IMG/VR virus record: IMGVR_UViG_3300038976_000011
Span: 1-62,227 of that record
Length of the DNA: 62,227 nucleotides
DNA from: a virus
Lineage: Duplodnaviria; Caudoviricetes
Reading direction: 5' to 3' (one strand)
Of this stretch, positions 5,598-58,698 are shown piece after piece. The notes below the pieces were generated by a model. That model saw only the letters and a list, made by a program, of their open reading frames with translations, searched no databases and was not told where the DNA came from. Numbering within the stretch: the stretch's first letter is position 1; each line of letters begins with the position of its first letter. The position numbers and the translations under genes were made by a program.

Positions 5598-5602
5598 GTG
5601 GG

Positions 5603-8004: not shown

Positions 8005-8029
8005 CTGTCCCACGAGAGGGGAAACAAGC

Positions 8030-8950
8030 ATGGCAGTTATGTCCGGGTCCCATTTCCTGGCCGCCGCGACCGGCCCCCCCATGTCCCGCTACGACGTGCT
8101 GTGTGTGCACACCATCGTCGGGCGTGCACCAGCGAACGCCGCCCACTTCTCCACCAACGCCGACGGCTACGTGTGGCAGTCCCGAGACACCCGCTACCAG
8201 TCGGCCGCCAACTACTACGGCAACCCTCGGGTGATCGCGGTCGAGAACGAAGACATGGGTCCCGCGTACGGTGCGTGGAACACCAACGACGGGCACGCGG
8301 TGCCCGGGTTCACGGCTCCGCAGGTGGAGTCGATCGCACAAATCTGTGCGTGGGCGAACCGAACCCACGGCATCCCGCTGGTGTTGTGCCCCGACTCCCG
8401 CCCGGGTTCGCGGGGCGTCGCCTACCACCGGCAGGGCATCTCCGGTAACTGGGCGGGGTTCGCCTACGGCGGACTTGTGTCCGGCGGCGAGGTGTGGACC
8501 CGCAGCCCCGGGAAGGTGTGCCCCGGCGACAGGCGGATCACCCAGGTCATCACGCAGATCATCCCCCGAGCTCGACAGATCGCAGGACTGGAGCAGGACA
8601 TGCAGGCAGACGAGCGCAGCTGGTTGGCGGATATCCATGAGGCCGTCATCTCCGGAATCAACTGGAGCACGAAGCACACCAAGGACCAGCTCTACAAGGT
8701 GCTGGGTGACGTCGCGAACCGTACTGTGGAAGCCGCGAACGCTGCTGGTGTTCGAGCGGACGCCGCCGCAGCGAAGGTGGACGCGTTGGCGGGAACGTTG
8801 GCGTCCGCTGCCCGCGAGGCCGTGGCCACTCACCTCGCGGCGAACCCCGTCACCGTCGCTGTCGACTACGAGGCATTAGCGAAGGCTGTGAACGACGACG
8901 CCGACGCCCGCGCCCGCGACCGTGACCCCTCCACCGGCCCGACCTCCTGA
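8030..8950 (+). CDS. Endolysin, N-acetylmuramoyl-L-alanine amidase (Amidase_2-like)
   Basis: CVHT, AHF, IAVENE, GVAYHR and KVCPG zinc-amidase motifs. Confidence 0.85.
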   Translation: MAVMSGSHFLAAATGPPMSRYDVLCVHTIVGRAPANAAHFSTNADGYVWQSRDTRYQSAANYYGNPRVIAVENEDMGPAYGAWNTNDGHAVPGFTAPQVESIAQICAWANRTHGIPLVLCPDSRPGSRGVAYHRQGISGNWAGFAYGGLVSGGEVWTRSPGKVCPGDRRITQVITQIIPRARQIAGLEQDMQADERSWLADIHEAVISGINWSTKHTKDQLYKVLGDVANRTVEAANAAGVRADAAAAKVDALAGTLASAAREAVATHLAANPVTVAVDYEALAKAVNDDADARARDRDPSTGPTS

Positions 8951-8963
8951 AAGGGGATCTGAC

Positions 8964-9377
8964 ATGCCCAACTGGTTCGCTGGTGTCGCTGACCGCGCCT
9001 CCCGCACCGCGCTCCAAACCATCGCCGGCTACCTGGCGGTAGCTCACGGATTCACCGAGGTCCACTGGTTACCGGCTCTGTCGGCGGCTGGGTTCGCGGT
9101 GCTGCTGTCGCTGCTCACGTCGCTGGTCGGGTCCCCGTCGTTCGGTGAGTCGTGGGGGTTCCAGGTCGCTGAGCGTGCGGTGAAGACGTTCGGTCAGTCG
9201 CTGCTCGCCGGGATCGGTGCGGCGACGCTGTTCGCTGATGTGGATTGGCGGACCGCGTTGAACGCTGCGGCGTTGGCGGCTGTCGCGTCGGCGGTGACGA
9301 GTGTGATGACCACCCGTGTTGGGGCTGGTCTGAGCCGCGGTCAGGTGGATCTGTCGGTGCCCCCGAACCGGGCCTGA
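8964..9377 (+). CDS. Holin with tandem r1t-type domains
   Basis: Two copies of (D/E)RAxxTxxQ...V(H/D)WxxALxAA...SxxTS; directly after the endolysin. Confidence 0.8.
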   Translation: MPNWFAGVADRASRTALQTIAGYLAVAHGFTEVHWLPALSAAGFAVLLSLLTSLVGSPSFGESWGFQVAERAVKTFGQSLLAGIGAATLFADVDWRTALNAAALAAVASAVTSVMTTRVGAGLSRGQVDLSVPPNRA

Positions 9378-9507: not shown

Positions 9508-9738
9508 TCACTTGCCGCGAGCGGCCCAGTAGCCGGCTTCCTGTCGCAACTGCTCCAGCGTGGACTTCAACGTCGCCACCGGCGGCAGGTTCGGCGGCGG
9601 GGTTCCGATGCCGCCGTCCGCGCACAGCACTCCATCACGGAAGTACTCCACATCCCACTGCGTCTCGTTCCGCTGTACGGCGCGCGCCGTGAACTTGTAC
9701 GGATCGCTGTCGTCTTCAAGAGTCAAGATCAAGGTCAT
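9508..9738 (-). CDS. Hypothetical protein
   Basis: ATGA-coupled to the recombinase stop. Confidence 0.6.
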   Translation of the reverse strand: MTLILTLEDDSDPYKFTARAVQRNETQWDVEYFRDGVLCADGGIGTPPPNLPPVATLKSTLEQLRQEAGYWAARGK

Positions 9739-10889
9739 GTTGCAACCCCTGCGTGGTAGATGCCGGAGACCACCCGAGCCGCGGACCGCTCCACCTCACC
9801 CGCATGCAGGTAGGTCTGGGTGGTCGACAGCGACGAGTGGCCGAGGTCTTGCTGGATCTGCGACACCGTCACCCCCGCCTGCTCAGCGGTGACCGCGTAG
9901 GCGTGCCTCAGTTGGTGGGGGTGGATGCTGTCGGCGATGGGGGCCAGGATGCGGGCGGCGTCCTGAACCTCTGGGCGGGGATCGTCGGGTCGGGCGTTGC
10001 GGGCGATGGTCCGCAGCATCCGGGACACTTGGTTAGCGTGGCACCTGCGACCGTGTTCTGTGGTGAACAGCGGCTGCGCCATACCGCCAGCGCTGACGTC
10101 GCCGATCCGTGCCACCGTTCCGCTCGTGAGCCGGGATACGCGGGTCTCCAGGTACGCCTCAACGAGCGCGACATCCGGTGCCGGGAGCAGCGCCCACCGT
10201 TCCTTCCCGCCTTTGCCGTGGAGCCGGAGCAGGGCGTGCCCGTCTGGCTTGGGCCGGTAGTCCCCGACGTCGAGGGCAACAAGCTCGGCGACACGGCATC
10301 CCGTCGCGGCGAGCACGGCGAGCATGGCCAGGTTCCGTTCCCGATGCCGCCTTGACAGGCGGGCGGCGAGGTAGAGGGCACGGACCTGGGCGGCGGCCGG
10401 CGCGATCGTGGTCGACGGATCGTTGCCGGCCAGTCCCATGGTGCGCCGGTTCACCATCTCCCCAGGGTCACAGGTCACGATGGCTTCGACGCGGAGGTAG
10501 CGGTAGAAGGCGCACAGCGCCGACCACCGTCTCTGCCGGGTCTTCTTCGGGGCGTCCTGCAGTACGTGTGCGTACGCTTCCGCCTGATCCCGCCGTAGCG
10601 GCCCGGCAGGGTTTATGCCGTGGTCGAGCGCCCACGGGATCCACGCCCCAGGATCGGCCGGTCTCGGGTTGATGGGCCCGCCGGGTAGCCGCCCGCCGTG
10701 GTCGATGTCGGTGCGCATCTCGCGGGACAAGCCGATGTCGCGGGCGTAGTCGTTCCGTGTGCTTGCCCCGGTGTAGCCGTGGAGCCAGCGCACTGCGTAC
10801 CCCTCAGCGCGGCGACGCAGCAACTCCCGTTGGTCGGCGACTCGGTCCAGCTCGACAGCGGAGACCGGGACCAGGGCGGAGCCAGTCAC
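9735..10889 (-). CDS. Tyrosine recombinase (XerC/D-like)
   Basis: Catalytic set TGCR, GKGGKER, HQLRH, LGH, TTQTY; SAM-like N-terminal domain; no obvious arm-binding domain. Confidence 0.92.
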   Translation of the reverse strand: MTGSALVPVSAVELDRVADQRELLRRRAEGYAVRWLHGYTGASTRNDYARDIGLSREMRTDIDHGGRLPGGPINPRPADPGAWIPWALDHGINPAGPLRRDQAEAYAHVLQDAPKKTRQRRWSALCAFYRYLRVEAIVTCDPGEMVNRRTMGLAGNDPSTTIAPAAAQVRALYLAARLSRRHRERNLAMLAVLAATGCRVAELVALDVGDYRPKPDGHALLRLHGKGGKERWALLPAPDVALVEAYLETRVSRLTSGTVARIGDVSAGGMAQPLFTTEHGRRCHANQVSRMLRTIARNARPDDPRPEVQDAARILAPIADSIHPHQLRHAYAVTAEQAGVTVSQIQQDLGHSSLSTTQTYLHAGEVERSAARVVSGIYHAGVAT

Positions 10890-11338
10890 CGGGCCCTCCA
10901 CTCCTGCCCCGGAGGCGGGTGCTCAGCCCACGAGTCTCCAGCGACCCACCGGTTCGTGGACGCCTCGACACCGACCCGCCACATGTAGACGTAGGGCCTC
11001 TCCGTCCAGGGCGCGAGCGACCAGCACCTCCGGACGTCCAGCACGATGGGATCGGGTGGCATCTCCGGCACCGTGTCGGGCTCGGTGACGAGCCGCCACA
11101 GTGGCTTCCCGGGCGCGGGCAGGAGTACCCGGCATTCGTCCCGCGCGATCATGTCCCGCACGAACGGTGCTTGCCGCTCGAACGACGGATGCGCGGTGTT
11201 GGGAGCAGGTGGCCACGAGTGGTCTTGTGAGGCGCTGAACATCTGCTCCAGATGGACGTGGTGCTCGGCGTCCGCTACCGCCTTCAGTCGCGCGAGCGCT
11301 TCGTCCAGCCGACGCATCTCATCGTCCGGGTTCACCAT
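10886..11338 (-). CDS. Hypothetical protein
   Basis: Translationally coupled within the leftward operon. Confidence 0.55.
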   Translation of the reverse strand: MVNPDDEMRRLDEALARLKAVADAEHHVHLEQMFSASQDHSWPPAPNTAHPSFERQAPFVRDMIARDECRVLLPAPGKPLWRLVTEPDTVPEMPPDPIVLDVRRCWSLAPWTERPYVYMWRVGVEASTNRWVAGDSWAEHPPPGQEWRAR

Positions 11339-11664
11339 GAGTGCATCTCCGCCTCGTCCATGTGTTTCCGCAGCCAGTAGAGGTCCTCGTGGCACAGGTC
11401 CAGAAAGCGTGGCCGCCCCGGAGTGGAGGCAACGATCGCGTACTGCGCCTGCTTGCCGCAGCGCAGGCACGCATGCGCCTCGTCCTGGCTACGGCGGTTG
11501 ATCGCCTCTACCCACTCGTCTGGATACTCCGGGGCCGGGTCCAGTAACGTCGGGTTGGCCTTGATGTGGTGCAGGAACGCCTCGCCGTCGTTGATCTCTC
11601 GCGGCCCGTACGTGGCCTCCATCGCGGCCTTCAGTTCCGGGTCCGGCTTCCACGGTTCGGTCAC
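11332..11664 (-). CDS. Hypothetical protein with CxxC motif
   Basis: Coupled ORF; CLRCG...LCH. Confidence 0.55.
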   Translation of the reverse strand: MTEPWKPDPELKAAMEATYGPREINDGEAFLHHIKANPTLLDPAPEYPDEWVEAINRRSQDEAHACLRCGKQAQYAIVASTPGRPRFLDLCHEDLYWLRKHMDEAEMHSW

Positions 11665-11667
11665 TGT

Positions 11668-11994
11668 TCAGTCCTCCGGGTCTTCACGGAGGCCCAGCTG
11701 GCGTCGCGCGCCTTCCGGGTCGGCTCGAATTGCGTCCGCCGCGATCCGCATGCCAGCTGCGTCGAGCGCGTGGTACAGACCGTGCGCGGCGGTGATGGTC
11801 TCCGGCTGGTCGGGCACATCGAGCGCGGTGAGCGTGTAGCCGTTCGGGTGCGCATCGACAGCGTCCGAGGCGTAGACCGCTATCAGTCGCCACGCGGTGC
11901 CGTCCGGGGCGGTTGTCTCGTAGATGCCCTGGACTATGTCGATCGGCGTCCACTGCGGCAACGGGCCGGTTCGGTTAGCTAGGGACCCACTCAC
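11668..11994 (-). CDS. Hypothetical protein
   Basis: GTGA-coupled to the DUF262 gene. Confidence 0.55.
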   Translation of the reverse strand: MSGSLANRTGPLPQWTPIDIVQGIYETTAPDGTAWRLIAVYASDAVDAHPNGYTLTALDVPDQPETITAAHGLYHALDAAGMRIAADAIRADPEGARRQLGLREDPED

Positions 11995-12554
11995 AACGAC
12001 ACCCCCGGCACGTAGGACTGCGCTCGCTTCAGGTCCTCGGCGGTCTGCGCGGTGCCCGCCGAGTTGATCAGCCCGTAGACCTCCGCCTCTTCGGCGAGGC
12101 TGCCGAGCATGGCCTCGGCGACCGGGATGATGAACCGGTTGTCCATGTAGCGGCGTCCGATGTCGGACAGGTCGTGGCACTGAACCAACCGCCCCGCGCC
12201 ATCAGCGACCATCCGGTCTTCTAGCCAGACAGCCGGGATCGCGAGGTGCCCGGACCACCACATGTGCATCGTGGTCAACCGCTGCTTCCCGTCGATGCAC
12301 GCGTACCAGACCTCGCCGGGGTCGCCCTCGTTCCGCGCCCAAGCGATGTTGCTGCCGCGCCGGTTGAGCACGATCGCCGCGACCGGCACACCGAGCAGCA
12401 GGGACCTGACGAGGTTGACGCGCTGCTCCACCGTCCACACGTCGCCTCGCTGGTAGGGCGGGTCCAGCAGCATGCCGCCGTCGTCGATGTGGTGGACGAG
12501 GTCCTTCATGCTGCGCGCGGTGGCGTTCATGTTGCGGTGGACGAGTGGTGCCAT
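11991..12554 (-). CDS. Stand-alone DUF262 (ParB/Srx-like, GmrSD N-terminal-type) protein
   Basis: PPYQRGDVW and IDGKQRLTT motifs, ending YGLINSAG; RBS GAGAGGGG. Confidence 0.85.
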   Translation of the reverse strand: MAPLVHRNMNATARSMKDLVHHIDDGGMLLDPPYQRGDVWTVEQRVNLVRSLLLGVPVAAIVLNRRGSNIAWARNEGDPGEVWYACIDGKQRLTTMHMWWSGHLAIPAVWLEDRMVADGAGRLVQCHDLSDIGRRYMDNRFIIPVAEAMLGSLAEEAEVYGLINSAGTAQTAEDLKRAQSYVPGVSL

Positions 12555-12594
12555 GTCCTGTTCCCCTCTCAATGGGTGCTCCACCACCCTATCA

Positions 12595-12630
12595 CGAGTG
12601 TGTGGATAATAAGAGTTATCCACACACTCG
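12595..12630. promoter_or_regulatory. 15-bp perfect inverted repeat containing two DnaA boxes
   Basis: CGAGTGTGTGGATAA-TAAGAG-TTATCCACACACTCG; TTATCCACA on both strands. Confidence 0.7.
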
Positions 12631-12639
12631 ACCAGCGGC

Positions 12640-12876
12640 CTACTCCTCTTCCTCGGCAGCGGCCTCCAGTCGTTCCAGGTAGTCCAGAACCATCAGCCCC
12701 GGCAGCGAAGGCCCGGGTACGTTCGGCCACACCCGCCCCAGCAGGGTCAGCGTCCGATCAAGGTCGGTGCCGACCAGCATCGGCTCGCCGTAGTCGCCCC
12801 ACATGCCGTCCACGGCCTGCTCGTGCATGTCGGCGACCTCGGCGCGCACATCGCGGATGACCTTCTTCGTGCTCAT
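12640..12876 (-). CDS. Hypothetical protein
   Basis: RBS AGAGAAAGGG before ATG. Confidence 0.55.
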   Translation of the reverse strand: MSTKKVIRDVRAEVADMHEQAVDGMWGDYGEPMLVGTDLDRTLTLLGRVWPNVPGPSLPGLMVLDYLERLEAAAEEEE

Positions 12877-12912
12877 GCCTGTTCCCTTTCTCTTCGTTGG
12901 AGTGTCCCTCAC

Positions 12913-13093
12913 GGGTTAGACCCAGAGTTAGATCCGGACATCGGGGTTAGGTTCCTAACCGGCGGGTTAACTGGGCCAGAATGTGGCCGTGACCTGCAAG
13001 AAGTTAGGTGAGTTAGGTCGATTCACCGGCCCAACTCACCCGCCAAACCAGGGCTGAAACAGGGGTTTTGACCTAACCCCAGCGACCTAACTC
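12913..13093. repeat. Array of about ten 8-bp G(G/A)GTTAG(G/A) repeats; putative clt (TraB recognition locus)
   Basis: Forward copies at 12913, 12925, 12944, 12964 (variant), 13001 and 13010; reverse copies at 12954, 13030 (variant), 13072 and 13086 (overlaps the traB stop). Confidence 0.72.
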
Positions 13094-15294
13094 TCGACAC
13101 TGTTCCGCACCCTCAGCGCCTCCCGGACGACCTCCGGCTTCACCGGCCACCGGTTCCCCGTCGACGGCACCTTCGCACCCTCAGCGGTCAACTGAGCCGC
13201 CAACATCTCGCCGGTCAACCGCCCCAAACCGTAGGCAGGATGCTCCGGGAACGCCCGCGCCAACAGCGGCGCGACCTTCGCGGCCGGCATCGGCACATCC
13301 CCGAGCACCTCCGCCACATCCGCCAGCAAGTCCCGGATCCCGACCCGCGCCGCCTCGATCACCCGCTGATGCCCGGACCGCAGCTGCATCGCCCGCTTCG
13401 TCACCCGACGCGCATCGGACTGCGGCACGTAGAAGCAACGCAGCATCCCGGGCGGGTTGGTGAACCCGCGGGCTGCGCAGGTCCCGGCGTCGTTCAGCTC
13501 GTCGTCGATCGCCGGCACCAGGTTCGCCGCGGTGATCCCCCGCTTGTGGAAGCCGGTACCGATCGCGGCGTCGTTGCCGATCTGGTCGCCGATCGGGAAA
13601 CACGCTCTGTTCGACATGACCCGCACCACCCCGGACGGCACCGCGTCCCCAGTCGGATCCGGGGTCAAGAAGATCAGGGTGGTGGCGTACTTGCGGGCCG
13701 TCGTGATCAGCTGCTTCACGATGGTCTCCGCGTCCTTGCCGTGATCGGACATGAACAAGTTCTGGCACTCGTCGAACACCATCACCCGCGGCCGCAGGCG
13801 GGGTTCCCGCTCCGCGTATGCGCGGCAAACGAACTTCTCCGGCTCGCGACCTGCGGCTTCGTCGATGGCCATCTGCTCCCGCAGCAGCTCACCCATCTCC
13901 GACAGGTCCCGGAACCGGTCCCGCAACAGTTGGATCGCGGCCTCCACCGTCGCGGTCTCCGCACCCGTGTGCAACGAACGCAACGCTGGCCGCATCGGCT
14001 CGTAGTCGCCGTTCTCCGCCATGACCACAACATCCACGTCCACCAGCGGATCCAGGATCGCGCCGAGCACCAGCGTGACCGCCATGCTCGACTTGCCGCT
14101 CCCCATGACGCCGGCCATGAAGTAGTTCTTCTGGGAGAGCGGACTGGTGACCACCTTCCCGCGCAGGGTCATGGCGACGGGGATGCCCTTGAAGTAGTCG
14201 CAGGTGGCGTGGTCCAGGTTCTTCAGCACCGGCCACGGCCCCACCGGTTTGGTCAGCACACCGGGGTCAGCGATCCACCCGTCGAGCACCCCGGCCTCGG
14301 GTTCGGTGGGCCACACCTCGATCGGGTACCGCTTCAAGTTGTGGGCGAACAGGTCACGCTTCTTGACGAACTCGAGGACCGGGGCGCGGGGTGGCAGGTC
14401 GATTTGGAAGTGGGTGCCGCCCTCGAAGTAGCGTGGCGGGATCTTGTAGCGGACCTTCCAGCCAGCCTTCACAGCGCGACCGAAGTCGGGAACGGTGTCG
14501 CAGAGCGCGGCGGTGATGGTGTCCTCGGTGAGCACGCTGGTCATCATGTCCCCGACACCGGTCTCCGGCGCCATCCAGCGGCCCGGGACCGCGTTCTTCT
14601 TCCCGACACACCACACCCCGCACACCAGCACCACCAGGCCGACCCGCCAGCCGATGGACCAGGCGACGCTTACGGCGTGCGCGGTCCACGCGATCCCCGC
14701 GTACATGCCCAGCATGGGCACCAGCATGTTGGCGACACTGCCGTTGATCCACAAAGCGAACCCGAGGAACAGCAGCAGCACGTGCAGCGCGAGGACGCTG
14801 ATCCCGAACGCCTTCGCCGCCCGCAGCGGCAGCTCGAGGAAGTCCATGTGCCGCTTGTGGCGGCTGTCGCGCATCTTCTCGCCGCGGTCATGCCACTCAC
14901 CGAGGTGGTCCCAGTCGCCGGCCGCTTCCGCTACCCGCATCAGCCGCTCGGGCCTGGCGTTTGTTTTGGCGTCCCACAGTCGGGCGGTGAGGATGCGGGT
15001 ACCAGCCACCATGTAGGTGCCCTGCCGGACCACGAACTTCGCGGCGGCGATGGTGCGCTTGGACTGGCGGACGGTGGCGACCACCGTGGCGCCAGTCTGC
15101 ACCACCCTGGCGACCCGGGTGGTGGGCGGCGGGTCGTCGACGATCTCCGCGTCGTACACTGGGCCGACATGCTCGACGTCGCTGGCGTCCATCTCCGCCA
15201 ACTCGCCGCCAGCCTGGCGGACGCGGGTGGGGAACTGGAGCAGCTCACCGCCAGCGTCCACGGTCTCGTGGTCGTAGCCCCCTGTGTCGGTCAC
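13087..15294 (-). CDS. traB: FtsK/SpoIIIE-family conjugal DNA translocase (TraB-like)
   Basis: N-terminal TM helices; Walker A GVMGSGKS; Walker B VMVFDECQ; ARKYAT; DQIGNDAAIG; C-terminal wHTH-like DLLADVAEVLG segment. Confidence 0.85.
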   Translation of the reverse strand: MTDTGGYDHETVDAGGELLQFPTRVRQAGGELAEMDASDVEHVGPVYDAEIVDDPPPTTRVARVVQTGATVVATVRQSKRTIAAAKFVVRQGTYMVAGTRILTARLWDAKTNARPERLMRVAEAAGDWDHLGEWHDRGEKMRDSRHKRHMDFLELPLRAAKAFGISVLALHVLLLFLGFALWINGSVANMLVPMLGMYAGIAWTAHAVSVAWSIGWRVGLVVLVCGVWCVGKKNAVPGRWMAPETGVGDMMTSVLTEDTITAALCDTVPDFGRAVKAGWKVRYKIPPRYFEGGTHFQIDLPPRAPVLEFVKKRDLFAHNLKRYPIEVWPTEPEAGVLDGWIADPGVLTKPVGPWPVLKNLDHATCDYFKGIPVAMTLRGKVVTSPLSQKNYFMAGVMGSGKSSMAVTLVLGAILDPLVDVDVVVMAENGDYEPMRPALRSLHTGAETATVEAAIQLLRDRFRDLSEMGELLREQMAIDEAAGREPEKFVCRAYAEREPRLRPRVMVFDECQNLFMSDHGKDAETIVKQLITTARKYATTLIFLTPDPTGDAVPSGVVRVMSNRACFPIGDQIGNDAAIGTGFHKRGITAANLVPAIDDELNDAGTCAARGFTNPPGMLRCFYVPQSDARRVTKRAMQLRSGHQRVIEAARVGIRDLLADVAEVLGDVPMPAAKVAPLLARAFPEHPAYGLGRLTGEMLAAQLTAEGAKVPSTGNRWPVKPEVVREALRVRNSVES

Positions 15295-16001
15295 GCTTCT
15301 GCACCACCCTGGCGGTCGACGTGCACCAAGTACGCCAGGATCGACGCCAGCGCCAACACCGCGACCGGCACCAGCGCCACCGCTGTCACCACCTGCCACG
15401 GCGCCCGGGTGTGTCCGTACGCCGTCAACAGGTGGTAGGCGACCTGCGCGGCGCCACCAACCACCAGGCTGGCGAACGCCGACGCGCAGGCATAGACGCG
15501 GACCGACTTACGGCTGGTGACGCGGGTCAACCAGATCCGCAGCGCATAGGTGCCGTACGCCTCCACACTGATCGGTAGGACGATCGCGGAGTTGATGGTG
15601 AGGCTGTCCCAGATCCCGGGCAGGGGGCGGACTGGTCCGTAGCCGGACATCTCACCGAGGCCCACCCAGCCGGACCAGACGGAGAACCCGGCGGCGACAC
15701 CCATCAGGATCAGCGCCCAGCGTTGACGGCGGACCCGTGACCACCACTCGGCTAGGCGGGAACGCTGGCTAGGTGCCAGGGCGGCGGGGTCTGGTGTGTC
15801 GCTGGTGCCGGCTGGTGTCGGGCTGGCGTCCACAGTCGCCATGGCCTGCCGCACCTGGTGCTCCGTCACCTGCGGGTCCACCCGCTCCTTCGCCAACTTC
15901 ACCAGGGTGGTGCGGCCTGGCGGCTTCTCGCCTGCCTCGGCGGCGCGGGTGCGCTCGTCAACGATCAGGCGCTCAAGTACTGCGGCTCCGTTGGTGCTCA
16001 C
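15291..16001 (-). CDS. Multi-TM membrane protein, Spd-like (plasmid spread) candidate
   Basis: N-terminal HTH-like segment (PPGRTTLVK); four TM helices, LPISVEAYG motif; coupled directly to traB. Confidence 0.6.
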   Translation of the reverse strand: MSTNGAAVLERLIVDERTRAAEAGEKPPGRTTLVKLAKERVDPQVTEHQVRQAMATVDASPTPAGTSDTPDPAALAPSQRSRLAEWWSRVRRQRWALILMGVAAGFSVWSGWVGLGEMSGYGPVRPLPGIWDSLTINSAIVLPISVEAYGTYALRIWLTRVTSRKSVRVYACASAFASLVVGGAAQVAYHLLTAYGHTRAPWQVVTAVALVPVAVLALASILAYLVHVDRQGGAEA

Positions 16002-16465
16002 CTGGCGCCACCCGCCACCATCACGGTGACCACCGCACCAACCGGGATCTGGACACCCTTGTGCACGGCCTGGTCCATCAGCATGCGGCCGTTCACCCCG
16101 TGGTCGGCGAGGTCATGGAACGCCCGCTTGCCGGTCACGTCGGCCAGCCGCCGCAGCAGCCGGCCGTCGTCGATGACCGCGTGCAACAGCCCCTCGACCA
16201 CGGTCCCGGCCAGCAGCGCCCTACCGGACACTCGCACACCGGTCGCCCGGTAGGCGATCCACTTCATGGCGGCCTGAGTCGCGGCGTAGGTGATGGCGTG
16301 GCGGGCGAGGGCGAACCGTCCCGCCCGGGTTTGGTGCTGCTTCGCTTGGGCGTCGCAGTCCAGTTGGATGAGGTAGTCGCCTACCTCGTGGCCAGCGATA
16401 CCCGCCAGCCAGGTCACAGCTAGGACAGTGGCGCGGGAATCTGTAAGGTCCACTTCAGCGGACAT
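15998..16465 (-). CDS. DUF3307-family membrane protein
   Basis: AGHEVGDYLIQ...HAVIDD...DQAVH motifs. Confidence 0.8.
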   Translation of the reverse strand: MSAEVDLTDSRATVLAVTWLAGIAGHEVGDYLIQLDCDAQAKQHQTRAGRFALARHAITYAATQAAMKWIAYRATGVRVSGRALLAGTVVEGLLHAVIDDGRLLRRLADVTGKRAFHDLADHGVNGRMLMDQAVHKGVQIPVGAVVTVMVAGGAR

Positions 16466-16492
16466 GGGAGGTCGGTCTCCTGTGTGCGTTAG

Positions 16493-16529
16493 GGGCCGCA
16501 CCCCGGCTGGAGGCCTGGGGGTGCGGCCC
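16493..16529. other. 12-bp inverted repeat (stem-loop) upstream of the DUF3307 gene
   Basis: GGGCCGCACCCC...GGGGTGCGGCCC. Confidence 0.55.
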
Positions 16530-16548
16530 TGTCCTATCGGTCTGGGTA

Positions 16549-16785
16549 CTAATCGGTCCATCTCTGCACAAGGCTGGCGATGTCTTCGCCGTACCTGGTC
16601 AAACAGCGGTGGCAGTGCGGCGGCACCAGGGTGGTGTCTTCCGGGCGCACGATCTTGTCGGGGGGCGCGGTGTGCAGACACAGCGCCTCCAAGTAGGTGT
16701 CGGTGGCGTGGGTGAAGGCATGGACCCGGAAGTCGTAGTCGGAGATCAGCCACTGCGCCTGCTGGTACGACTGGTCTGCCATCAC
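16549..16785 (-). CDS. Small Cys/His zinc-finger-like protein
   Basis: VHAF...ALCLH...CHRC pattern; such ORFs often lie divergent from Xre/DUF397 loci. Confidence 0.6.
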   Translation of the reverse strand: MMADQSYQQAQWLISDYDFRVHAFTHATDTYLEALCLHTAPPDKIVRPEDTTLVPPHCHRCLTRYGEDIASLVQRWTD

Positions 16786-17108
16786 ACGCTCCGGGGGTGT
16801 AGCCCGACGGGCGCAGCGGCGGGTGCACGGAAGGCTGCGCCCGTCGGGGCTGGGGCCGGCAGACGCGAGGACGAGCGGGGGTCACCCGCGCCTGCCGGGG
16901 CTGGGGTAGACGCAGACCGGGGGAGCGTGTGGGGGAGTCGCTCGACCCCGGCCTGCCTTCGGGTGCCCGCTGGGGGTCGGGTCACCCGAGTTGTCGTGGA
17001 GCCGTCTGGCGTGCGGCTCCACGGCTGGTTACGGCTGTGGAGGTGTAGGTCGCCGAGTACGGCGGCGGAGAGCATGATGACGTAGAGGTCGAACACGAGG
17101 CCGGTCAT
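16782..17108 (-). CDS. Hypothetical protein (N-terminal TM, Pro-rich)
   Basis: First ORF after the leftward promoter; coupled to the next gene. Confidence 0.4.
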   Translation of the reverse strand: MTGLVFDLYVIMLSAAVLGDLHLHSRNQPWSRTPDGSTTTRVTRPPAGTRRQAGVERLPHTLPRSASTPAPAGAGDPRSSSRLPAPAPTGAAFRAPAAAPVGLHPRSV

Positions 17109-17167
17109 GTCTCGTCTGCCATGGGGCTGCGCTCCAGCGCCTGGGTGTCACACGCATCTGCACGTGC

Positions 17168-17212
17168 TGTACCGGTACACTCTAGTCTGACTGTCCCGGG
17201 ACAGACTTGCAA
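17168..17212 (-). promoter_or_regulatory. Leftward sigma70-type promoter with palindromic operators
   Basis: Minus strand TTGCAA-N17-CAGACT; perfect palindrome CTGTCCCGGGACAG (17191-17204) in the spacer and TGTACCGGTACA (17168-17179) downstream. Confidence 0.6.
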
Positions 17213-17270
17213 CCCCACCCCTGGCGTCATCCCCCAACATCCCCCACCACACCCCCGATAGGGTCAATAC

Positions 17271-18086
17271 ATGACGACATCGTGGCGAGTCCGAGCACTG
17301 AAGAAGGTGCTTCGGGACGCGCTGAAGGAGGCCCGTGTCTCTGGCAGGGAGGCGGCGCGGCGCCTCAACGTACCGACCATGCGCGTGAGCCGATGGTTAG
17401 ATGACACCGAGGCCGCGCCCTCAACCGAGGACGTCGCCAGACTCATCACCGCGGTCGGCGTTACCGGGGATGACTTCGACCGGATCCTCCGGGTCGCGAA
17501 CGTCGGCGAGGACTGGTTCACCGGTGTCACCGCGTCAACGTTCATCGCGTGCGAGCGTGACGCGTTCCGCATCACCGAGTGCGCGCCGCTGGTCATCCCC
17601 GGGCTGCTGCAGACCCCGGAGTACACGCGGCACCTGAACTACGGCGGCCAGTCAGACGCGGCGACCGAGCAGGCCGTGGCTGTTCGGCGGGAGCGGGCCG
17701 CGGTGCTGGCCGGTGAGCATCCGACTGAGCTGCTGGCGCTGATCGGCATACCCGCGCTGGAGGGGATGATCGGCGGCCCGAAGGTGATGGCTGAGCAGCT
17801 GGCGCATCTGGCTTCGATGGCGAGGCGGAGCAACGTCACGGTGCAGGCCATTGACCTAGGCGGGGGATGGACGCCCGCGCATGTGACTTCGTTCTTCGTC
17901 TACGAGTACGCCGAGTTGCCTACCACGGTGTACGTGGAGCAGTTATCGGGTGGAACCTTCCACGTTGACTCACCCCACGTGGATAATTACGAGGCTGCGG
18001 TGGACTGGCTCCGCAGCGTGGCGATGAGCCCCGCCGACACGCTGGAGCTCATCGCCAGCATCATCCCGGAGAAGGAGGATATGTGA
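17271..18086 (+). CDS. Xre-family HTH regulator with DUF5753 domain (Scr1/WhiJ-like)
   Basis: N-terminal HTH; IPGLLQTPEY, IGGPKVMAEQL and VYVEQ motifs. Confidence 0.9.
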   Translation: MTTSWRVRALKKVLRDALKEARVSGREAARRLNVPTMRVSRWLDDTEAAPSTEDVARLITAVGVTGDDFDRILRVANVGEDWFTGVTASTFIACERDAFRITECAPLVIPGLLQTPEYTRHLNYGGQSDAATEQAVAVRRERAAVLAGEHPTELLALIGIPALEGMIGGPKVMAEQLAHLASMARRSNVTVQAIDLGGGWTPAHVTSFFVYEYAELPTTVYVEQLSGGTFHVDSPHVDNYEAAVDWLRSVAMSPADTLELIASIIPEKEDM

Positions 18087-18265
18087 CGAAGATACACGAG
18101 GTGACCTGGCGGAAGTCGACGTTCTCGGCGCAGGACACCGAGGCGTGTGTGGAGCTCGGGAACCGTGGCTGGGTGCGTGATTCCAAGAACCCTGCTGGCC
18201 CGGTGCTGGCGTTGCCGTGGTCGTCTTTGCTGGCGGCGGTGAAGACGGACCGTATCGCCCGCTGA
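18083..18265 (+). CDS. DUF397 protein
   Basis: WRKSTFS...CVEL...VRDSKNPAGPVL. Confidence 0.92.
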   Translation: MTKIHEVTWRKSTFSAQDTEACVELGNRGWVRDSKNPAGPVLALPWSSLLAAVKTDRIAR

Positions 18266-18325
18266 TCCGGCAGGCATGAGTTGGCCCCGGCGCTCCGATG
18301 GGGGAGGCCGGGGCCAACCTCTGTC

Positions 18326-18526
18326 TCAGGCCGGACCGTCGATCACGGACGCTGTGCGTTCGAAGTCCCGCAGCGACTGGCAGGGCCACGGCTCCAAGCA
18401 CGTCTCGCACTCCGAGCCGTCCCCGCTGTCGCGCGGCTGGTGGAGCCGGTACATCACTCGGGTGAGGCTGGCTACCGCCGCGCTCACATCCACCTTGATC
18501 GTGAACCGCAGGCCGTCTGTGCTCAT
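18326..18526 (-). CDS. Small Cys-rich hypothetical protein
   Basis: LHQP...CETCLEPWPC. Confidence 0.55.
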   Translation of the reverse strand: MSTDGLRFTIKVDVSAAVASLTRVMYRLHQPRDSGDGSECETCLEPWPCQSLRDFERTASVIDGPA

Positions 18527-18759
18527 GGGGTATCCACCTCGACTCGTATCGGTGAAGGCGTGGCGGCGACACATGCTGGACAGAAGTCGCCTTGCCCGTC
18601 AGCGCCCGGCTTCCATCCCTCCGGCAGCACGCCATCGGGCATGGCCTCAACGTTCCGGCAGCCGTCGCACTGTACAGCGGCCACCGTCACCTGGATGCGG
18701 CGCCAGAGACGCAGGCCAAGCCGGCGAGCCGTGCCCTGTTTGAGCGGCGTGTCAGCCAT
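18523..18759 (-). CDS. Zinc-ribbon hypothetical protein
   Basis: CDGC...GW...FCPAC. Confidence 0.55.
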   Translation of the reverse strand: MADTPLKQGTARRLGLRLWRRIQVTVAAVQCDGCRNVEAMPDGVLPEGWKPGADGQGDFCPACVAATPSPIRVEVDTP

Positions 18760-19093
18760 GGGTATCCACCCCCGAACACAAGACCGCCTTGGCGAGGTCC
18801 AGGGCCGGCGCGAACCGGTCCGCCAACGCCGCCTTGAACTGTACCGCGTTGAGCGTCATGCCCGAGACGGTGACGTCGTGAGCGGCTGCCCGCAGAAGCG
18901 CTTCGAGCCCTGGGGCTGCGGCTGGGGACAGAGCAGCGATCCACCGGCGCGCGTGCTCTGGGCACTGTCGGTCCAGGCTCCAGTACAACCACGACTCGTG
19001 GCGCTTCTCCCAGTCGCCCTCACCTGCGTGGTAGTGGGCTGCTAGGTCTCGGATGCGGTCAGCCGCCGCAACCAACGTCTCGACCGGGGTCAC
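18752..19093 (-). CDS. Hypothetical protein
   Basis: Coupled ORF; AADRIR...WIAALSP. Confidence 0.55.
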   Translation of the reverse strand: MTPVETLVAAADRIRDLAAHYHAGEGDWEKRHESWLYWSLDRQCPEHARRWIAALSPAAAPGLEALLRAAAHDVTVSGMTLNAVQFKAALADRFAPALDLAKAVLCSGVDTHG

Positions 19094-19476
19094 GGCCCGG
19101 CCTCGATCGCGGCGACAGGGAGCCACGCCAGGCCGGGGCTACCCGCATACGGGGACTTGTCGGTCGGAGTCAGGTACTCGCTGTCGGACGGCAACCACAC
19201 GTGGTACCCGTCGTCGCGTCTCTCGATCCGCATGGTGTTCGTCCCTCCCTGGAAGTCGATCGGTGCTTTCGTCGGCAGCCACGCGGCACCGTCCAGGTCG
19301 ACCCACACCACCCAGGGCAGCGTGTACTTGGACTCGCCGACCCGCATCGACTCGATCGTCCGCGTGTACTTCGGCGGGTCAGAGGTGGGTGGCGTCGTGT
19401 CCGGTGTCGGCGTTGAGCAGCCGCCGATCGCGGCGGCCAGCGTCGCGGCCAGCATGATGAGTCGTAGGGTCTTCAT
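19090..19476 (-). CDS. Putative lipoprotein
   Basis: Signal peptide MKTLRLIMLAATLAAAIGG-C followed by a Pro/Thr linker. Confidence 0.7.
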   Translation of the reverse strand: MKTLRLIMLAATLAAAIGGCSTPTPDTTPPTSDPPKYTRTIESMRVGESKYTLPWVVWVDLDGAAWLPTKAPIDFQGGTNTMRIERRDDGYHVWLPSDSEYLTPTDKSPYAGSPGLAWLPVAAIEAGP

Positions 19477-20504
19477 GGCAGTACCACCGTTCCGTTCCAG
19501 AGCTGCGAGGTCACGCCACCAGCCTGCTCCATCCCCACCACAACCCGCACCTGCTTCGGGTCGGCGACCGAAGGCACCATCGACGCGTACGTCATCATCC
19601 CGCCCGCCGGCGCCGCCAACACCACACCGCCCGGCACCCACGTCACCCCGTTGTCCACGCTCGTGGCCATCACCGCGGACCCGGTCGACGCCTCCCGATA
19701 CACCGTGAGCAGGGTGCCCCCCGACGCGATCACCGTTGGTCGGCCGGTCGCGTTGTCCAGGATCTTGCGGGGCTGTTCCGGCCACGACACCCCCGAATCC
19801 GGGGACGAGCGGATACCGATCGCGTTGTCACCCCACCTGAACAGCATGTGCGTCCAGGACCCGTTGACCACCAGGTACGGCTCCGCTGTCGACATACCCG
19901 CACCCAGGAAGTTGACGATACGGTTCTGCGTCCAGGACCAGGCGCCGTCGCTTGACCACCCCATCCACGCCGTCCAGACAGCTTCACCTGCCTGTTTGCC
20001 GTAGAACGCGACCGCCATGCGCCCGTCCGGGAGCTGTGTCACCGGCCCGGAGATCGCCGCCTGCTGGAGGGTGTCGATCCGGCGGGAGAACTCCCACCAC
20101 TCCCGCTGCACCGCGACACCCATCGCCGGGTTGGTGCTGTTCGCACCGAACCACGTCATGTAGTTGATGCCGCCGATCGATGACGTAGAGGGGTCGCGGT
20201 ACAGGTTGACCTTCACTGTCTGGGTGTTGCCCCAGGTGACACCGTCGTCGTAGGACTCGGCGGTCATCACCCGCCCGTCGGTGGCGAGGTGGGTGGAGCC
20301 TTGCCGCCACGTCAGCAGCAGCGTCCCGCCCGGCTCCCTCGCCAGCGACGGGAACGCTGAGTGGGCGGCTTGGCCTACGGTCATGGGTTGCATGGGTGTC
20401 TCCAGACGCGGTCTGGCCGCGGTTCGGGCCACCACGGTTGCGGGGGCGGCGGCGGTGCACGCGGCGACAGCAGCGGCGAGCACCGCGCAAAGTAACCGTC
20501 TCAC
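19473..20504 (-). CDS. BNR/Asp-box (sialidase-fold) putative lipoprotein
   Basis: Asp boxes SYDDGVTW, SSDGAWSW, SPDSGVSW, SVDNGVTW; signal peptide with AVAA-C. Confidence 0.8.
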   Translation of the reverse strand: MRRLLCAVLAAAVAACTAAAPATVVARTAARPRLETPMQPMTVGQAAHSAFPSLAREPGGTLLLTWRQGSTHLATDGRVMTAESYDDGVTWGNTQTVKVNLYRDPSTSSIGGINYMTWFGANSTNPAMGVAVQREWWEFSRRIDTLQQAAISGPVTQLPDGRMAVAFYGKQAGEAVWTAWMGWSSDGAWSWTQNRIVNFLGAGMSTAEPYLVVNGSWTHMLFRWGDNAIGIRSSPDSGVSWPEQPRKILDNATGRPTVIASGGTLLTVYREASTGSAVMATSVDNGVTWVPGGVVLAAPAGGMMTYASMVPSVADPKQVRVVVGMEQAGGVTSQLWNGTVVLP

Positions 20505-20893
20505 GGGGTCGGCTCCTCTACACCCAGACCACGAGCCAACACCCGCAGCGTCTCTTCCATGGCCTTCACGTACCCGTTGTTGCCCGAGTACTCCGGGTGG
20601 CAGGACTGCGTGAACAGCGCGCCGGTGTACAGGCTGATGATGTCTCGGTGTGCCCGACACAACCGAAGGGCCGGGGTCGGGTGCTGCTCCATCATGTGAC
20701 GGTCAGCTTCCCGGTTGGTGGACTCTTCCGCGCCTTCGGTTGCCCAACTGTCACACAGGTGACACTCGGCTCTCACCTCTTCGCTGTCGCCGGTCGTCGT
20801 CCAACCGGTGTAGCCGTCGATGAGTACGTTCAGTTCCTCACGCTCGACCTGTGCGATCTTGGCTAGGAGAGCAGACACCACGGTGTCAGACAT
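20501..20893 (-). CDS. DUF6221-like protein
   Basis: Shares the HPxxxLRxCxAxRxI and LRVLA pattern with the 43546 and 44145 genes. Confidence 0.5.
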   Translation of the reverse strand: MSDTVVSALLAKIAQVEREELNVLIDGYTGWTTTGDSEEVRAECHLCDSWATEGAEESTNREADRHMMEQHPTPALRLCRAHRDIISLYTGALFTQSCHPEYSGNNGYVKAMEETLRVLARGLGVEEPTP

Positions 20894-21290
20894 GACGGGC
20901 CTCCTGCGGCTTCCGTTGGATCACTGGACGGTCCACATGCAGGTGCTCCACCACCGTCGACCAGCCCCCCGCCGAAGCGCGCCGCGCCACCTCGGCGGCG
21001 ATCACCACAGACCGGTGCCGGCCCCCGACACACCCCACCGCCACCGACACCGGACCGGTCCCCGTCGCGAGAAGAGCCGACGCCACCTTCCACAACGCCG
21101 CGATATACCTGTCCACGCCGTCGGTGCCGAGAACCTTGTCCACCACCGCCTGGTCACGCCCCGTCATCCCACGCAACTGCGGGTCGATGTGCGGGTCACG
21201 GAACCGCATCCGCACATCAACCACCACATCAGCGGTCGGCAGCAGCTCACCATGCCCGTACCTGAACGAGTACACCAACAGGTCAGGCAT
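20886..21290 (-). CDS. RapZ C-terminal-domain-like protein (stand-alone)
   Basis: SFRYGHG...DVR..FRDP...LRGMTG...VAVGCVGGRHRSV. Confidence 0.85.
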   Translation of the reverse strand: MPDLLVYSFRYGHGELLPTADVVVDVRMRFRDPHIDPQLRGMTGRDQAVVDKVLGTDGVDRYIAALWKVASALLATGTGPVSVAVGCVGGRHRSVVIAAEVARRASAGGWSTVVEHLHVDRPVIQRKPQEARHV

Positions 21291-21669
21291 GACGTCCCTC
21301 CGTCCGCTTCTGCTGCGCGGTCCACGGCATGACCAAGCCGTCGTTCTCGCGGCGAGGCACGATGTGCCAGTGCAGATGAAACTCTGTCTGGTCAGCCCAC
21401 GGACCACAGTTCGTGATCAAATGGAAGTCGCTGATGTAGGTGAGGGTGGCCAGCTCAGCGGCCCGCGCCGCCACCATCCCCGTCACCGCGTAATCCTCGG
21501 ACGCATCCGCCACATGCCGGATCGGCACCACCAACAGGTGACCCTCGGTGCAGTCCCGACACCCCCACTCATCGACGAAGGGCAGGAACGCGACCGCGTC
21601 CCCCCACCGCCACACCACCTGCGCGGGCTCGGTACCTGCGACGATCCCACAGAACGTGCAGTCATTCAT
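21283..21669 (-). CDS. HIT-family nucleotide hydrolase
   Basis: CTFC, GHLLVVP and HLHWH triad. Confidence 0.92.
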   Translation of the reverse strand: MNDCTFCGIVAGTEPAQVVWRWGDAVAFLPFVDEWGCRDCTEGHLLVVPIRHVADASEDYAVTGMVAARAAELATLTYISDFHLITNCGPWADQTEFHLHWHIVPRRENDGLVMPWTAQQKRTEGRHA

Positions 21670-21916
21670 GGCGGGCACCCCCACCAGCAACCCCAGATGA
21701 CTGGTTGGCCTGTTGGCGCGCGTCGGCGACGGCCGCAAGCATGGCCAGCGCGACGGCCTCAGCCTCACCGTCGCGCCAGACCTGTCCGTTCAGCCGGATG
21801 TAGGGCCAGCCAGCTTTGTCCACCTCAGCGACGATCTCGACGCCAGCGTTCACGGCGGCGTCGAGCCACCGCCGGGCTTCGGCCTCCACCGTGTCCTGCT
21901 CGTTGCTGATGTTCAC
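21662..21916 (-). CDS. Hypothetical protein
   Basis: Coupled ORF. Confidence 0.5.
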   Translation of the reverse strand: MNISNEQDTVEAEARRWLDAAVNAGVEIVAEVDKAGWPYIRLNGQVWRDGEAEAVALAMLAAVADARQQANQSSGVAGGGARHE

Positions 21917-22257
21917 CGGTTCGCTCCCTGCTCTGTCGGTGCCCATATCCAATCCCCACCCACTTCGAGCGCCCGATACACACCCGGCTCCACCGGCGGC
22001 CTATCCAAGCCTTCGACATACTCGGGCAGCGTGCAGCCGTGGGTGGCGGTGTCGACCCGCTCCCGCAGCGGGTGAGTCACGGTGAACGAGGTCTCCGTGA
22101 ACGTCACCAGGTGTTCGGTTTCCTGGTCCATGAGGATCTGGGACACCGCGAACGGTGACGGGCAGGTCAGCTTTTTGCAGGCGATGTGCCCGTCGCACAT
22201 GAGGGTGAGGGTGGTGCCGCAGCCCATCGGGCAGAAGCCTGCGACGTCGACGGTCAC
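21913..22257 (-). CDS. Cys-rich hypothetical protein
   Basis: GFCPMGCG...HPLRER...PGVYRA. Confidence 0.6.
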   Translation of the reverse strand: MTVDVAGFCPMGCGTTLTLMCDGHIACKKLTCPSPFAVSQILMDQETEHLVTFTETSFTVTHPLRERVDTATHGCTLPEYVEGLDRPPVEPGVYRALEVGGDWIWAPTEQGANR

Positions 22258-22582
22258 GGGGTCTCCTCCCCACGCAACACAGAAGCCCGAGCCCGGCCGC
22301 TCACGGCCGCCACTTGGCCTCCCGTCTCCCGCACCGGCCGCACGTCACGATCGCCCCGTACCGCAGGCCCGTCACAGTCCTGACCCGATGCCCGGTCAGG
22401 GAGCAGCGCAGACGCCGCCACAGCGTTCTCACCGCCGGTCGCCCCTCTCGGATGGTTGCACTGGTCGCAGCACCGCACGTCCTCCTCGCCCTCGTCAGCG
22501 AACCCGCAGTCGGCGCGCCTCATGCGGCAACTGCGACAGTTCGTGCCGTCCCGCACCGCAGGCAGTTCGATGTAGCCGTACA

Positions 22583-22828
22583 TCACTGACCCCCAGACTC
22601 GTCGATCACCGTGAGCAGGTCGGCGACCAGGTTCGGCAACTCCTGTCCGACGCGCAGACACTCCTTCGTCGCGAACGGCGACATCCCCGTGTAGTTGCCC
22701 GGGTCCACGACCGTGCCGACGAACGAGCCGCGCCCCGAGCCACCGTCACCTTCGGTCACTCGCGCGGTGAACCACTGGCCGCGTTCGTGCTCCCAGCGGA
22801 CCAGCTTCCCGATCATGTCGCCGTTCAT
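22583..22828 (-). CDS. Hypothetical protein
   Basis: ATGA-coupled ORF. Confidence 0.5.
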   Translation of the reverse strand: MNGDMIGKLVRWEHERGQWFTARVTEGDGGSGRGSFVGTVVDPGNYTGMSPFATKECLRVGQELPNLVADLLTVIDESGGQ

Positions 22829-23031
22829 CGGGACACCTGCTCATCACGGTCATCGACATCCGACGCGACGACCGCCCGCGGCTTCTCGCCGCTACCCGAA
22901 CAGTTCGAGGGCGGACACACGCCCGGCGCGCCGTGCGCCCGCACGGTGCCGTCCTTCTTCAGGTTGAACAGGCGCACGCACACGTGGCAGATGCCTCGCC
23001 CGTACGGTGCCGTGTTCGCGAAGTCGCTCAT
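22825..23031 (-). CDS. Small zinc-binding protein
   Basis: CHVC...DGTVRAH...CSGSG; coupled to padR. Confidence 0.55.
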   Translation of the reverse strand: MSDFANTAPYGRGICHVCVRLFNLKKDGTVRAHGAPGVCPPSNCSGSGEKPRAVVASDVDDRDEQVSR

Positions 23032-23324
23032 GGTCGCTTCCTCTCTGACAGCAGCTGCTGCACGTACCCCCGACGCTCTTCCCGCAGCCGATACACCCGC
23101 CGCGGTGGGGCACCGGCACCCGTCGTCGGCTCCCACTCGTCGTCCACGATCCGCAGCTCCCGAAGTCGTTCCAAGATGCGGTACACGGTGCCCCGGCCGT
23201 AGCCGGCGAGCCGGGCGATCTCGTATCCGTGGAGCTCCATGGATGCCTTGTTCAGCACCTCCAGCACGTCACACAGTTGCGGTGTGAGGGTGGGGCGTGG
23301 TGGGTCCTCGCTTGCTTCGGTCAT
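23028..23324 (-). CDS. PadR-family winged-helix regulator
   Basis: LHGYEIA...GTVYRILERL...W...PPRRVYRL. Confidence 0.88.
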   Translation of the reverse strand: MTEASEDPPRPTLTPQLCDVLEVLNKASMELHGYEIARLAGYGRGTVYRILERLRELRIVDDEWEPTTGAGAPPRRVYRLREERRGYVQQLLSERKRP

Positions 23325-45073: not shown

Positions 45074-45081
45074 CCAGTAAC

Positions 45082-58670: not shown

Positions 58671-58698
58671 CCCCAAAGTGTATCAGAAGGAGCATATT

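Follow-up and report, generated by a model that had tools for sequence, protein, structure and literature searches.

The tra operon and the repeat array behind it

The DNA described here is the viral record IMGVR_UViG_3300038976_000011 (Caudoviricetes), analysed over its full length of 62,227 nucleotides (nt) and referred to below as the window. Our subject is a cassette in its leftward-transcribed region, in which an operon ending with the gene of an FtsK-like ATPase (tra) is followed directly by an array of short repeats. A first-pass annotation, made from the letters and the open reading frames (ORFs) alone, had read this cassette as an apparently intact Tra/clt-type DNA-transfer module, of plasmid or actinomycete integrative and conjugative element (AICE) ancestry, within a tailed phage. 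The features of the locus are as follows (aa, amino acids; TM, transmembrane).

12913–13093 (181 bp), unstranded: clt-like array of GRGTTAGG/CCTAACYC, eight perfect and about two degenerate copies in both orientations
13087–15294, minus strand: Tra/TraB-family FtsK-like double-stranded DNA (dsDNA) translocase, 735 aa, assigned from the ORF, motifs, family alignment, profile and model
15291–16001, minus strand: membrane protein, 236 aa, 3–4 hydrophobic segments by hydropathy (about four TM helices; the 4-TM protein below), translationally coupled to tra
15998–16465, minus strand: DUF3307-like protein, 155 aa (Pfam E = 2e-4, 21.7 bits with a cut-off of 23; phrog_2470, 2e-12)
16549–16785, minus strand: 78-aa ORF at the head of the operon, no family hit
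16782–17108: ORF further upstream with poor coding statistics
17271–18086, plus strand: Xre-DUF5753 protein, 271 aa (Pfam 1.3e-47)
18083–18265, plus strand: DUF397 protein, 60 aa (Pfam 4.5e-13)
12640–12912, minus strand: 90-aa ORF downstream of the array
11991–12623, minus strand: 210-aa protein with a GmrSD_N/DUF262 domain only (Pfam)

The leftward operon noted in the first-pass annotation is present as described. It runs from the DUF3307-like gene through the 4-TM gene to tra, each gene overlapping the next by 4 nt, and tra starts with a GTG in the overlap with the stop of the 236-aa gene. The ATPase is laid out as a disordered N-terminal part, two membrane helices, a motor with Walker A and B motifs and a C-terminal winged-helix-like domain of ~85 aa. 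Both motifs, which the annotation had called intact, are so (Walker A, GVMGSGKS with K401; Walker B, VMVFDE with D508 and E509), and the protein retains every column that is invariant in a 44-member family alignment, K401, D508 and E509 included. Two hydrophobic 19-mers precede the motor at ~165–183 and 207–225 in the hydropathy profile, and both lie inside long helices of the AlphaFold (AF2) model, which has a predicted local distance difference test score (pLDDT) of 79.5. The N-terminal part is therefore predicted to associate with the membrane.

General databases recognised the ATPase only weakly (Pfam Zot, 1e-6, and FtsK_SpoIIIE, 8e-3; among the PHROGs, phrog_1358 of the FtsK/SpoIIIE superfamily, E = 4e-7), and its family profile matched FtsK in the PDB at 6e-7. 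In a Foldseek search with the model, the FtsK motor came out on top (7e-14, target-normalised template modelling score ~0.6), followed by TcpA, a coupling protein of conjugation, and by EccC/EssC. The closer relationships are given by blastp, in which pCM32 Tra scored 9e-66 (37% identity), pSVH1 TraB 1e-14 (23%) and three chromosomal FtsK proteins ~1e-4, and by the family hidden Markov model, which gave them 493, 111 and 19–31 bits, respectively. A phylogeny of the ATPase with chromosomal FtsK had been set in advance as a check, and in it the three FtsK proteins form the outgroup, pCM32 Tra being the nearest in the scores. Searching 72,556 plasmid records with the ATPase gave 21 matches, for the most part to small plasmids of actinomycetes; pCM32 is the best of them, and pSVH1 and the 35,159-bp Streptomyces sp. 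F11 plasmid NC_006911.1 are also included. These matches and rankings place the ATPase in the Tra/TraB family found on actinomycete plasmids and in AICEs, and the ancestry proposed for the module stands. A tblastn search of 50,697 GenBank phage records with the ATPase gave no match at E 1e-5 or better, indicating that its Tra lineage is unrepresented among the deposited cultured phages.

For the 4-TM protein, a regular companion of this Tra family, we counted 2382 homologues, which carry no family name, and the protein matches no Pfam family. Its gene lies directly upstream of tra in 17 loci and is present in two related records, G001 and G002. The first-pass annotation had called the protein Spd-like, a label that holds for its position beside tra and for its topology and is used here as an analogy in these two respects. 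As an SpdB2 the protein was rejected, since hhalign of a 26-member profile with pSVH1 SpdB2 returned a probability of 0.2%. DUF2637 came up as an Atlas lead (0.82), but Pfam scans of the 26 family members gave no DUF2637. The DUF3307-like protein is homologous to the product of the annotated DUF3307 gene of pCM32, and relatives of it are encoded 1–5 kb upstream of tra in 14 loci.

The Xre-DUF5753 and DUF397 genes are divergent from the operon and face it, as had been noted. The pair is conserved in G001 and matches the NCBIfam Sco1979 family below the cut-off; relatives of the Xre protein occur near tra in 8 loci and those of DUF397 in 3. We take this pair to resemble the developmental WhiJ/BldB pairs. 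A scan for sigma-70 promoters and intrinsic terminators, which is uninformative for actinomycetes, gave 0 sites between 12600 and 17500.

The array extends from the tra stop codon to the beginning of the next gene. All six window matches to GRGTTAGR lie inside it, where 1.64 would be expected for the whole 62-kb window, as do all five window copies of GTTAGGT/ACCTAAC and 8 of the 19 GTTAG/CTAAC cores. The 8-bp array that the annotation had placed directly after tra is thus confirmed, but its copies stand in both orientations and it is therefore not a simple run of direct repeats. In the clt regions of plasmids, direct 8-bp repeats are reported to be recognised by the cognate TraB (excerpt of PMC4447253), and in pSVH1, which served as a control, GACCCGGA occurs five times in the equivalent 260-nt position after traB, which is the position of clt. 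The ATPase gene is likewise followed by GTTAG/CTAAC repeats in G001, G002 and pCM32, where the protein is 97%, 48% and 37% identical, respectively. In a four-way alignment of these three with the window, the cores are the invariant columns, and their order and orientation are kept in register.

We surveyed the array position in 122 near-full-length loci, with random windows from the same loci as controls. Within 275 nt after the tra stop, the top 6-mer occurred at least five times in 102 of the 122 loci, compared with 120 of 583 control windows. Sorted by repeat word, the arrays form classes (GTTAG, GGTTAA, AGGGAG and others) whose distribution follows the ATPase tree, and a variable segment of the Tra C-terminal domain covaries with the class. 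Loci with the C-terminal signature ‘S[ST]-GNRWP’ have GTTAG arrays in 15 of 19 cases and AGGGA arrays in none (0/19), while those with ‘YKS-GG’ have AGGGA arrays in 50 of 53 cases and GTTAG arrays in none (0/53), so that repeat class and signature are mutually exclusive. A switch of repeat class within an otherwise AGGGAG clade was found at L014/L075. These counts, which are subject to confounding by common ancestry, indicate together with the conservation in register that the array is tied to the ATPase and not to the neighbouring genes, replication or packaging. The C-terminal domain itself is modelled with a pLDDT of 78; its best Foldseek match is weak (E 0.37), and Foldseek and VIA gave no significant match to a solved winged helix.

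The array could also be something other than clt, namely an operator of the downstream genes, a centromere for the DUF262 (ParB-fold) protein or a replication origin. It occupies the 5′ region of the 90-aa gene, next to the gene of the GmrSD_N/DUF262 protein, and AICE RepAM is reported to bind 8-bp repeats (excerpt of PMC2440964). However, the array follows tra even though the genes downstream of it differ, these being Prim-Pol in pCM32, L078 and L086, a GmrSD_C-like gene in G002 and the 90-aa ORF in the window. It also persists in the window, where an AICE Rep gene is lacking, its word class tracks the Tra C-terminal domain, and it has the same position as the clt of pSVH1. We therefore regard these other functions as very improbable.

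The cassette within a complete temperate phage genome

The first 127 nt of the window are identical to the last 127 nt, and IMG/VR assigns the record to the class DTR (direct terminal repeat) with 100% completeness, indicating that the window is one whole phage genome of ~62.1 kb. This genome is circular or terminally redundant, has a G+C content of 67% and contains the full gene set of a tailed temperate phage, large terminase, portal, HK97 capsid, tail, lysis and integrase genes all being found with PHROGs and Pfam. We read it as that of a temperate siphovirus whose host is a mycelial soil actinomycete. The first-pass annotation had listed the virion, lysis and integrase genes correctly but had overlooked a second, serine integrase. 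Apart from the two integrases, for which the matches are given, the following features were assigned with PHROGs and Pfam.

46622–48675: small and large terminase
48943–51090: portal-protease ORF, 715 aa, Phage_portal and Peptidase_S78 in one ORF
51146–52444: HK97 capsid
58633–59730: tail tube
60773 onward to 3541: tape measure, spanning the record ends
3538–6640: tail proteins
7991–9377: endolysin and holin
9735–10901, minus strand: tyrosine integrase, at the end of the leftward block and adjoining the lysis genes (Pfam 2e-20; 88% identical in G001)
23451–24935, plus strand: large serine recombinase, the second integrase, at the opposite end of this region and beside the early genes (Pfam Resolvase and Recombinase; phrog_95, 8e-44; 90% identical in G001)
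from 25.9 kb, rightward: early genes, comprising a repressor-type HTH, RusA, two methyltransferases, two WhiB, a replication initiator and a DnaC-like loader

The leftward region of 9.5–23.3 kb, in which the cassette is found, is placed between the lysis and early genes and bounded by the tyrosine integrase and the large serine recombinase. In pCM32 and in the sister loci L078 and L086, which are canonical AICEs, the order of genes is GntR/NUDIX, a large protein, Tra, array, Prim-Pol, RepAM/DUF3631 or DUF3987, HTH_17 and tyrosine integrase. The window shows the AICE order from DUF3307 to the tyrosine integrase, with the 90-aa ORF, the DUF262 protein and small ORFs replacing the replication genes, and a tyrosine integrase is found downstream of tra as in an AICE. 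Weak relatives of this integrase are encoded 3–5 kb downstream of tra in 5 other loci; it has no detectable similarity to the integrase of pCM32. The absence of an AICE Rep gene and of a separate att boundary, both stated in the first-pass annotation, held up. Pfam, PHROGs and NCBIfam gave no Prim-Pol, RepAM/DUF3631 or RepSA between the tyrosine and serine integrases, and no exact direct repeats of at least 14 nt flank the block, where only imperfect matches at chance level were seen. Within the 85 ORFs of the window, PHROGs detected no ParA, ParB or RepA, and no tRNA gene is present.

The 90-aa ORF and the DUF262 protein occupy the place of Prim-Pol and RepAM in the AICE relatives. In the same place, G002 (L003 3011–3700) encodes a GmrSD_C-like protein with a signal-like N-terminus. 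One possibility is that the GmrSD_N/DUF262 and GmrSD_C-like proteins represent halves, or variant forms, of a nuclease resembling type IV restriction enzymes.

A second viral record, G001 (L008–L010), shares ~18.5 kb with the window (9747–28250), at 84–95% nucleotide identity in blastn and 75–97% amino acid identity in tblastx, and the similarity ends at the 3′ end of the tyrosine integrase gene. The large terminase of G001 shares only 37% identity with that of the window, and the tail genes of G001, which match Pfam Gp77/Gp80 fibre families, belong to a different type. This combination of a shared block with differing virion genes indicates that the cassette travels between phages with a mosaic lysogeny and early block. 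As G001 is collinear with the window from the serine to the tyrosine integrase, a chimeric assembly, a concern raised with the first-pass annotation, is unlikely. In G002, the 4-TM gene, tra and the array adjoin lysis and tail genes, and none of the 13 ORFs called in the next 10 kb downstream encodes an integrase. On the ATPase tree, the window groups with G001 and G002 in a starred clade, which lies inside a starred clade of 27 rows that are mostly Pseudonocardiales genome loci. All three have a PF05065 capsid and a relative of the large terminase (that of the window being the query). Among Logan contigs, the likely source run yielded short pieces only, and two other soil runs contained relatives of tra, of the 4-TM gene and of the integrase, all of them diverged; the joints listed for these contigs are effects of low likeness, and no RNA run was among the runs listed.

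Between the window and G001, the ratio of nonsynonymous to synonymous substitution rates (dN/dS) is 0.107 for tra, 0.26–0.32 for the integrases and Xre, and 0.55 for the 4-TM gene; as judged from this ratio, tra is under strong purifying selection between the two phages. On the combined sequence evidence, the cassette is an intact AICE-type Tra/clt module of the pCM32/pMEA kind, kept under selection in a complete temperate phage. To the first-pass annotation the module had looked domesticated. The dN/dS value and the copy in G002 fit a module kept by the phage. The AICE-like synteny up to the tyrosine integrase had escaped that annotation.

This synteny also allows the cassette to be viewed as a passenger, that is, the remnant of a pMEA/pCM32-type AICE that recombined into the lysogeny region, lost Rep and att, and now hitch-hikes without being of use to the phage. 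The order DUF3307, membrane protein, Tra, array, (rep), integrase matches that of pCM32, L078 and L086, and the block lies within the mosaic segment that is shared with G001 despite the diverged terminase. Moreover, virus- and genome-borne members are interspersed on the tree, where the label ‘virus with capsid or portal’ changes 23 times compared with a mean of 25.8 after shuffling. We nevertheless consider a useless passenger unlikely, because tra is under purifying selection, the family-invariant residues are all retained, the register of the array cores is conserved, G002 keeps the cassette with no integrase beside it, and a capsid or portal gene is also found in 34 of 50 viral records with a relative, as described below.

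Several other features of this genome were observed. The portal and prohead protease, which are fused in the window, are encoded by two adjoining genes in related phages (tblastn). Four HNH or endonuclease VII genes are present (31834–32460, 36654–37097, 52477–53169 and 57906–58676), two of which are inserted among the head and tail genes, one of these two on the opposite strand. The leftward accessory region encodes a 395-aa protein with BNR/sialidase-like repeats (19473–20660; 93% identical in G001) and a 173-aa protein with a RapZ C-terminal domain only (20886–21407; Pfam 4e-24), relatives of which lie less than 10 kb from the Tra gene in 11 other loci.

Spread of the ATPase family and a possible role in DNA transfer

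Single-sequence searches, one in genome contigs and one with a tail protein in viral contigs, were both without a match, so that a family alignment was needed for finding loci. The search with this alignment gave 63 IMG/VR records and 300 genomic stretches, 80 of which were kept. Capsid and portal genes were scanned for in the first 50 of the 63 viral records (L062–L074 were left out), and capsid genes in 50 of the 80 kept genome loci. A PF05065 capsid was found in 26 of the 50 viral records and a PF04860 portal in 28, at least one of them being present in 34; three of the 50 records are of the DTR class, two of them with a capsid. On the genome side, 26 of the 50 have no PF05065 capsid anywhere. 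In at least two genomes, L124 and L137, a capsid match falls at coordinates inside the 22-kb locus range, assuming that the contig numbering corresponds, and cultured strains with an ATPase relative near capsid genes include, for example, the genomes behind L107/G009, L124 and L137. The capsid and portal counts, together with the genomes that have no capsid, indicate that the ATPase family lives in both AICEs and phages. Its occurrence alongside virion genes is common, a point that the first-pass annotation had missed. The closest genomic relatives of the window ATPase are found in Pseudonocardiales. The closest of these, at 47% identity, is L075/L014 (Amycolatopsis taiwanensis; IMG/VR provirus G003, 58.9 kb), in which we found neither a PF05065 capsid nor a PF04860 portal, and which is flanked by AICE-like NUDIX and GntR genes and by a gene for an Rv2525c-like glycoside hydrolase.

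By analogy with plasmid TraB and clt, the cassette may be a working DNA-transfer system of the phage and give it the third life route suggested in the first-pass annotation, a reading to which we assign a probability of roughly 55%. Tra hexamers would sit in the membrane via their two N-terminal helices, and the C-terminal winged-helix-like domain would dock on the array of a circular phage genome, either excised or newly injected. The motor would then pump the phage dsDNA across septa or into adjoining hyphae with the help of the membrane partners, and the transferred genome would re-establish itself through the phage's own integrases and replication genes. The AICE-type GntR kil-kor control and the Rep genes are absent, and the Xre-DUF5753/DUF397 pair faces the operon instead.

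Four points weigh against a phage-serving transfer module. Shared descent confounds the association of array class with C-terminal signature. The mosaic block that contains the cassette is common to two phages whose virion genes differ, so that the cassette could be a selfish passenger persisting with it. The 4-TM protein has no detectable SpdB2 kinship and evolves faster than tra (dN/dS of 0.55, as given above). Finally, the GntR regulator that tames traB in plasmids is absent from the window: a Pfam scan of the ORFs from 9735 to 24935 gave none, whereas the relatives L075, L078, L086 and L090 have one each.

The pump might also act inside one mycelium, distributing phage genomes to chromosomes, compartments or spores in the manner of FtsK or SffA, or it might act at the membrane against superinfecting DNA. 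We know of no exclusion function in the Tra family, which counts against the latter role. For a role within the mycelium speak the FtsK fold that is predicted for the motor and the location of the cassette in a region usual for prophage-expressed genes, where it is paired with Xre-DUF5753 and DUF397. TraB is in addition reported to act with Spd proteins in intramycelial spreading, and Thoma et al. 2015 suggested a supporting part in the spread of phage DNA for the SpdB2 homologues of phiC31 and VWB (excerpt of PMC4447253 for both). The closest characterised relatives of the ATPase, however, are transfer proteins of plasmids and AICEs, and the sequence does not separate intramycelial from intermycelial movement. 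We think it rather improbable that the cassette serves the phage in either of these ways.

At least 34 viral records encode an ATPase relative together with a capsid or portal, and the proposed transfer may extend beyond the window. We tentatively suggest, at odds below even, that AICE-type Tra/clt cassettes are retained widely among temperate actinophages and provide them with a working third route of transmission, by which the excised or newly injected genome moves as naked dsDNA between hyphae or compartments. If so, these phages could spread with no need of receptors or virions, and the distinction between prophages and AICEs would be blurred. A working cassette would change how prophage spread, host range and resistance are seen in antibiotic-producing soil bacteria, and it would affect the separation of ‘prophage’ and ‘AICE’ predictions in genome annotation. 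The pairing of repeat words with Tra C-terminal domains in more than 100 loci also provides a data set for a DNA-recognition code of such pumps.

Comparison with known systems

The best characterised relative of the ATPase is that of pCM32, an integrative plasmid of Saccharopolyspora endophytica (NZ_KM260754.1). The title of Chen et al. 2015 on pCM32 refers to integration. Like the window, pCM32 has a DUF3307 gene, Tra, a CTAAC array in register and an integrase downstream. In contrast to the window, pCM32 and the pMEA-type AICEs carry Prim-Pol, RepAM/DUF3631 or DUF3987, HTH_17 and GntR/NUDIX genes and no virion genes, while the window has a full virion and lysis set and a serine integrase but none of their replication or GntR genes. 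The TraB/clt system of pSVH1 (Streptomyces venezuelae) resembles the window in having a membrane-anchored FtsK-like ATPase with short repeats directly after its gene. The window differs from it in the repeat word, in having copies in both orientations, and in lacking an SpdB2 homologue and a GntR-type TraR.

Tailed-virion elements with plasmid-type transfer genes have been described before. For Streptomyces, Zhong et al. 2010 reportedly presented pZL12/phiZL12 as a plasmid-phage. In excerpts of later papers, pZL12 is cited as an already published conjugative plasmid-phage of Streptomyces (PMC3583192, PMC4487206) and as the model for pSLE1 (PMC4487206) and PhiNon1 (PMC5431353). As excerpted, these three elements share with the window the combination of a tailed virion with plasmid-type transfer genes. 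The same excerpt of PMC4487206 presents pZL12 and pSLE1 as autonomous plasmids with RepA or ParAB, whereas the window has two integrases and, in the PHROGs scan, no RepA or ParAB. PhiNon1, a plasmid-phage of Nonomuraea (L187, NZ_LT559120.1), has a portal 45% identical to that of the window. At 43341–49075 it carries a DUF2637 membrane gene and the gene of a 654-aa ‘hypothetical’ protein with a Walker A motif. This ATPase matches the Tra family profile weakly (16 bits), and we saw no repeat array after its gene.

FtsK-like genes are also listed in genome papers on Streptomyces phages, in the excerpts at hand with no function tested (PMC13587820, PMC11536984). The FtsK/SpoIIIE-like proteins of these cultured phages share the superfamily with the window ATPase and differ from it in the Tra lineage. 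In the literature searched, we found no survey of Tra/clt cassettes in integrative phages, and a 2025 review in NAR, in the excerpts at hand, does not mention them. The presence of such a module in a phage is nevertheless not unprecedented, given pZL12 as described in these excerpts, the suggestion made for the SpdB2 homologues of phiC31 and VWB, and the many phage records in which relatives of the ATPase are encoded.

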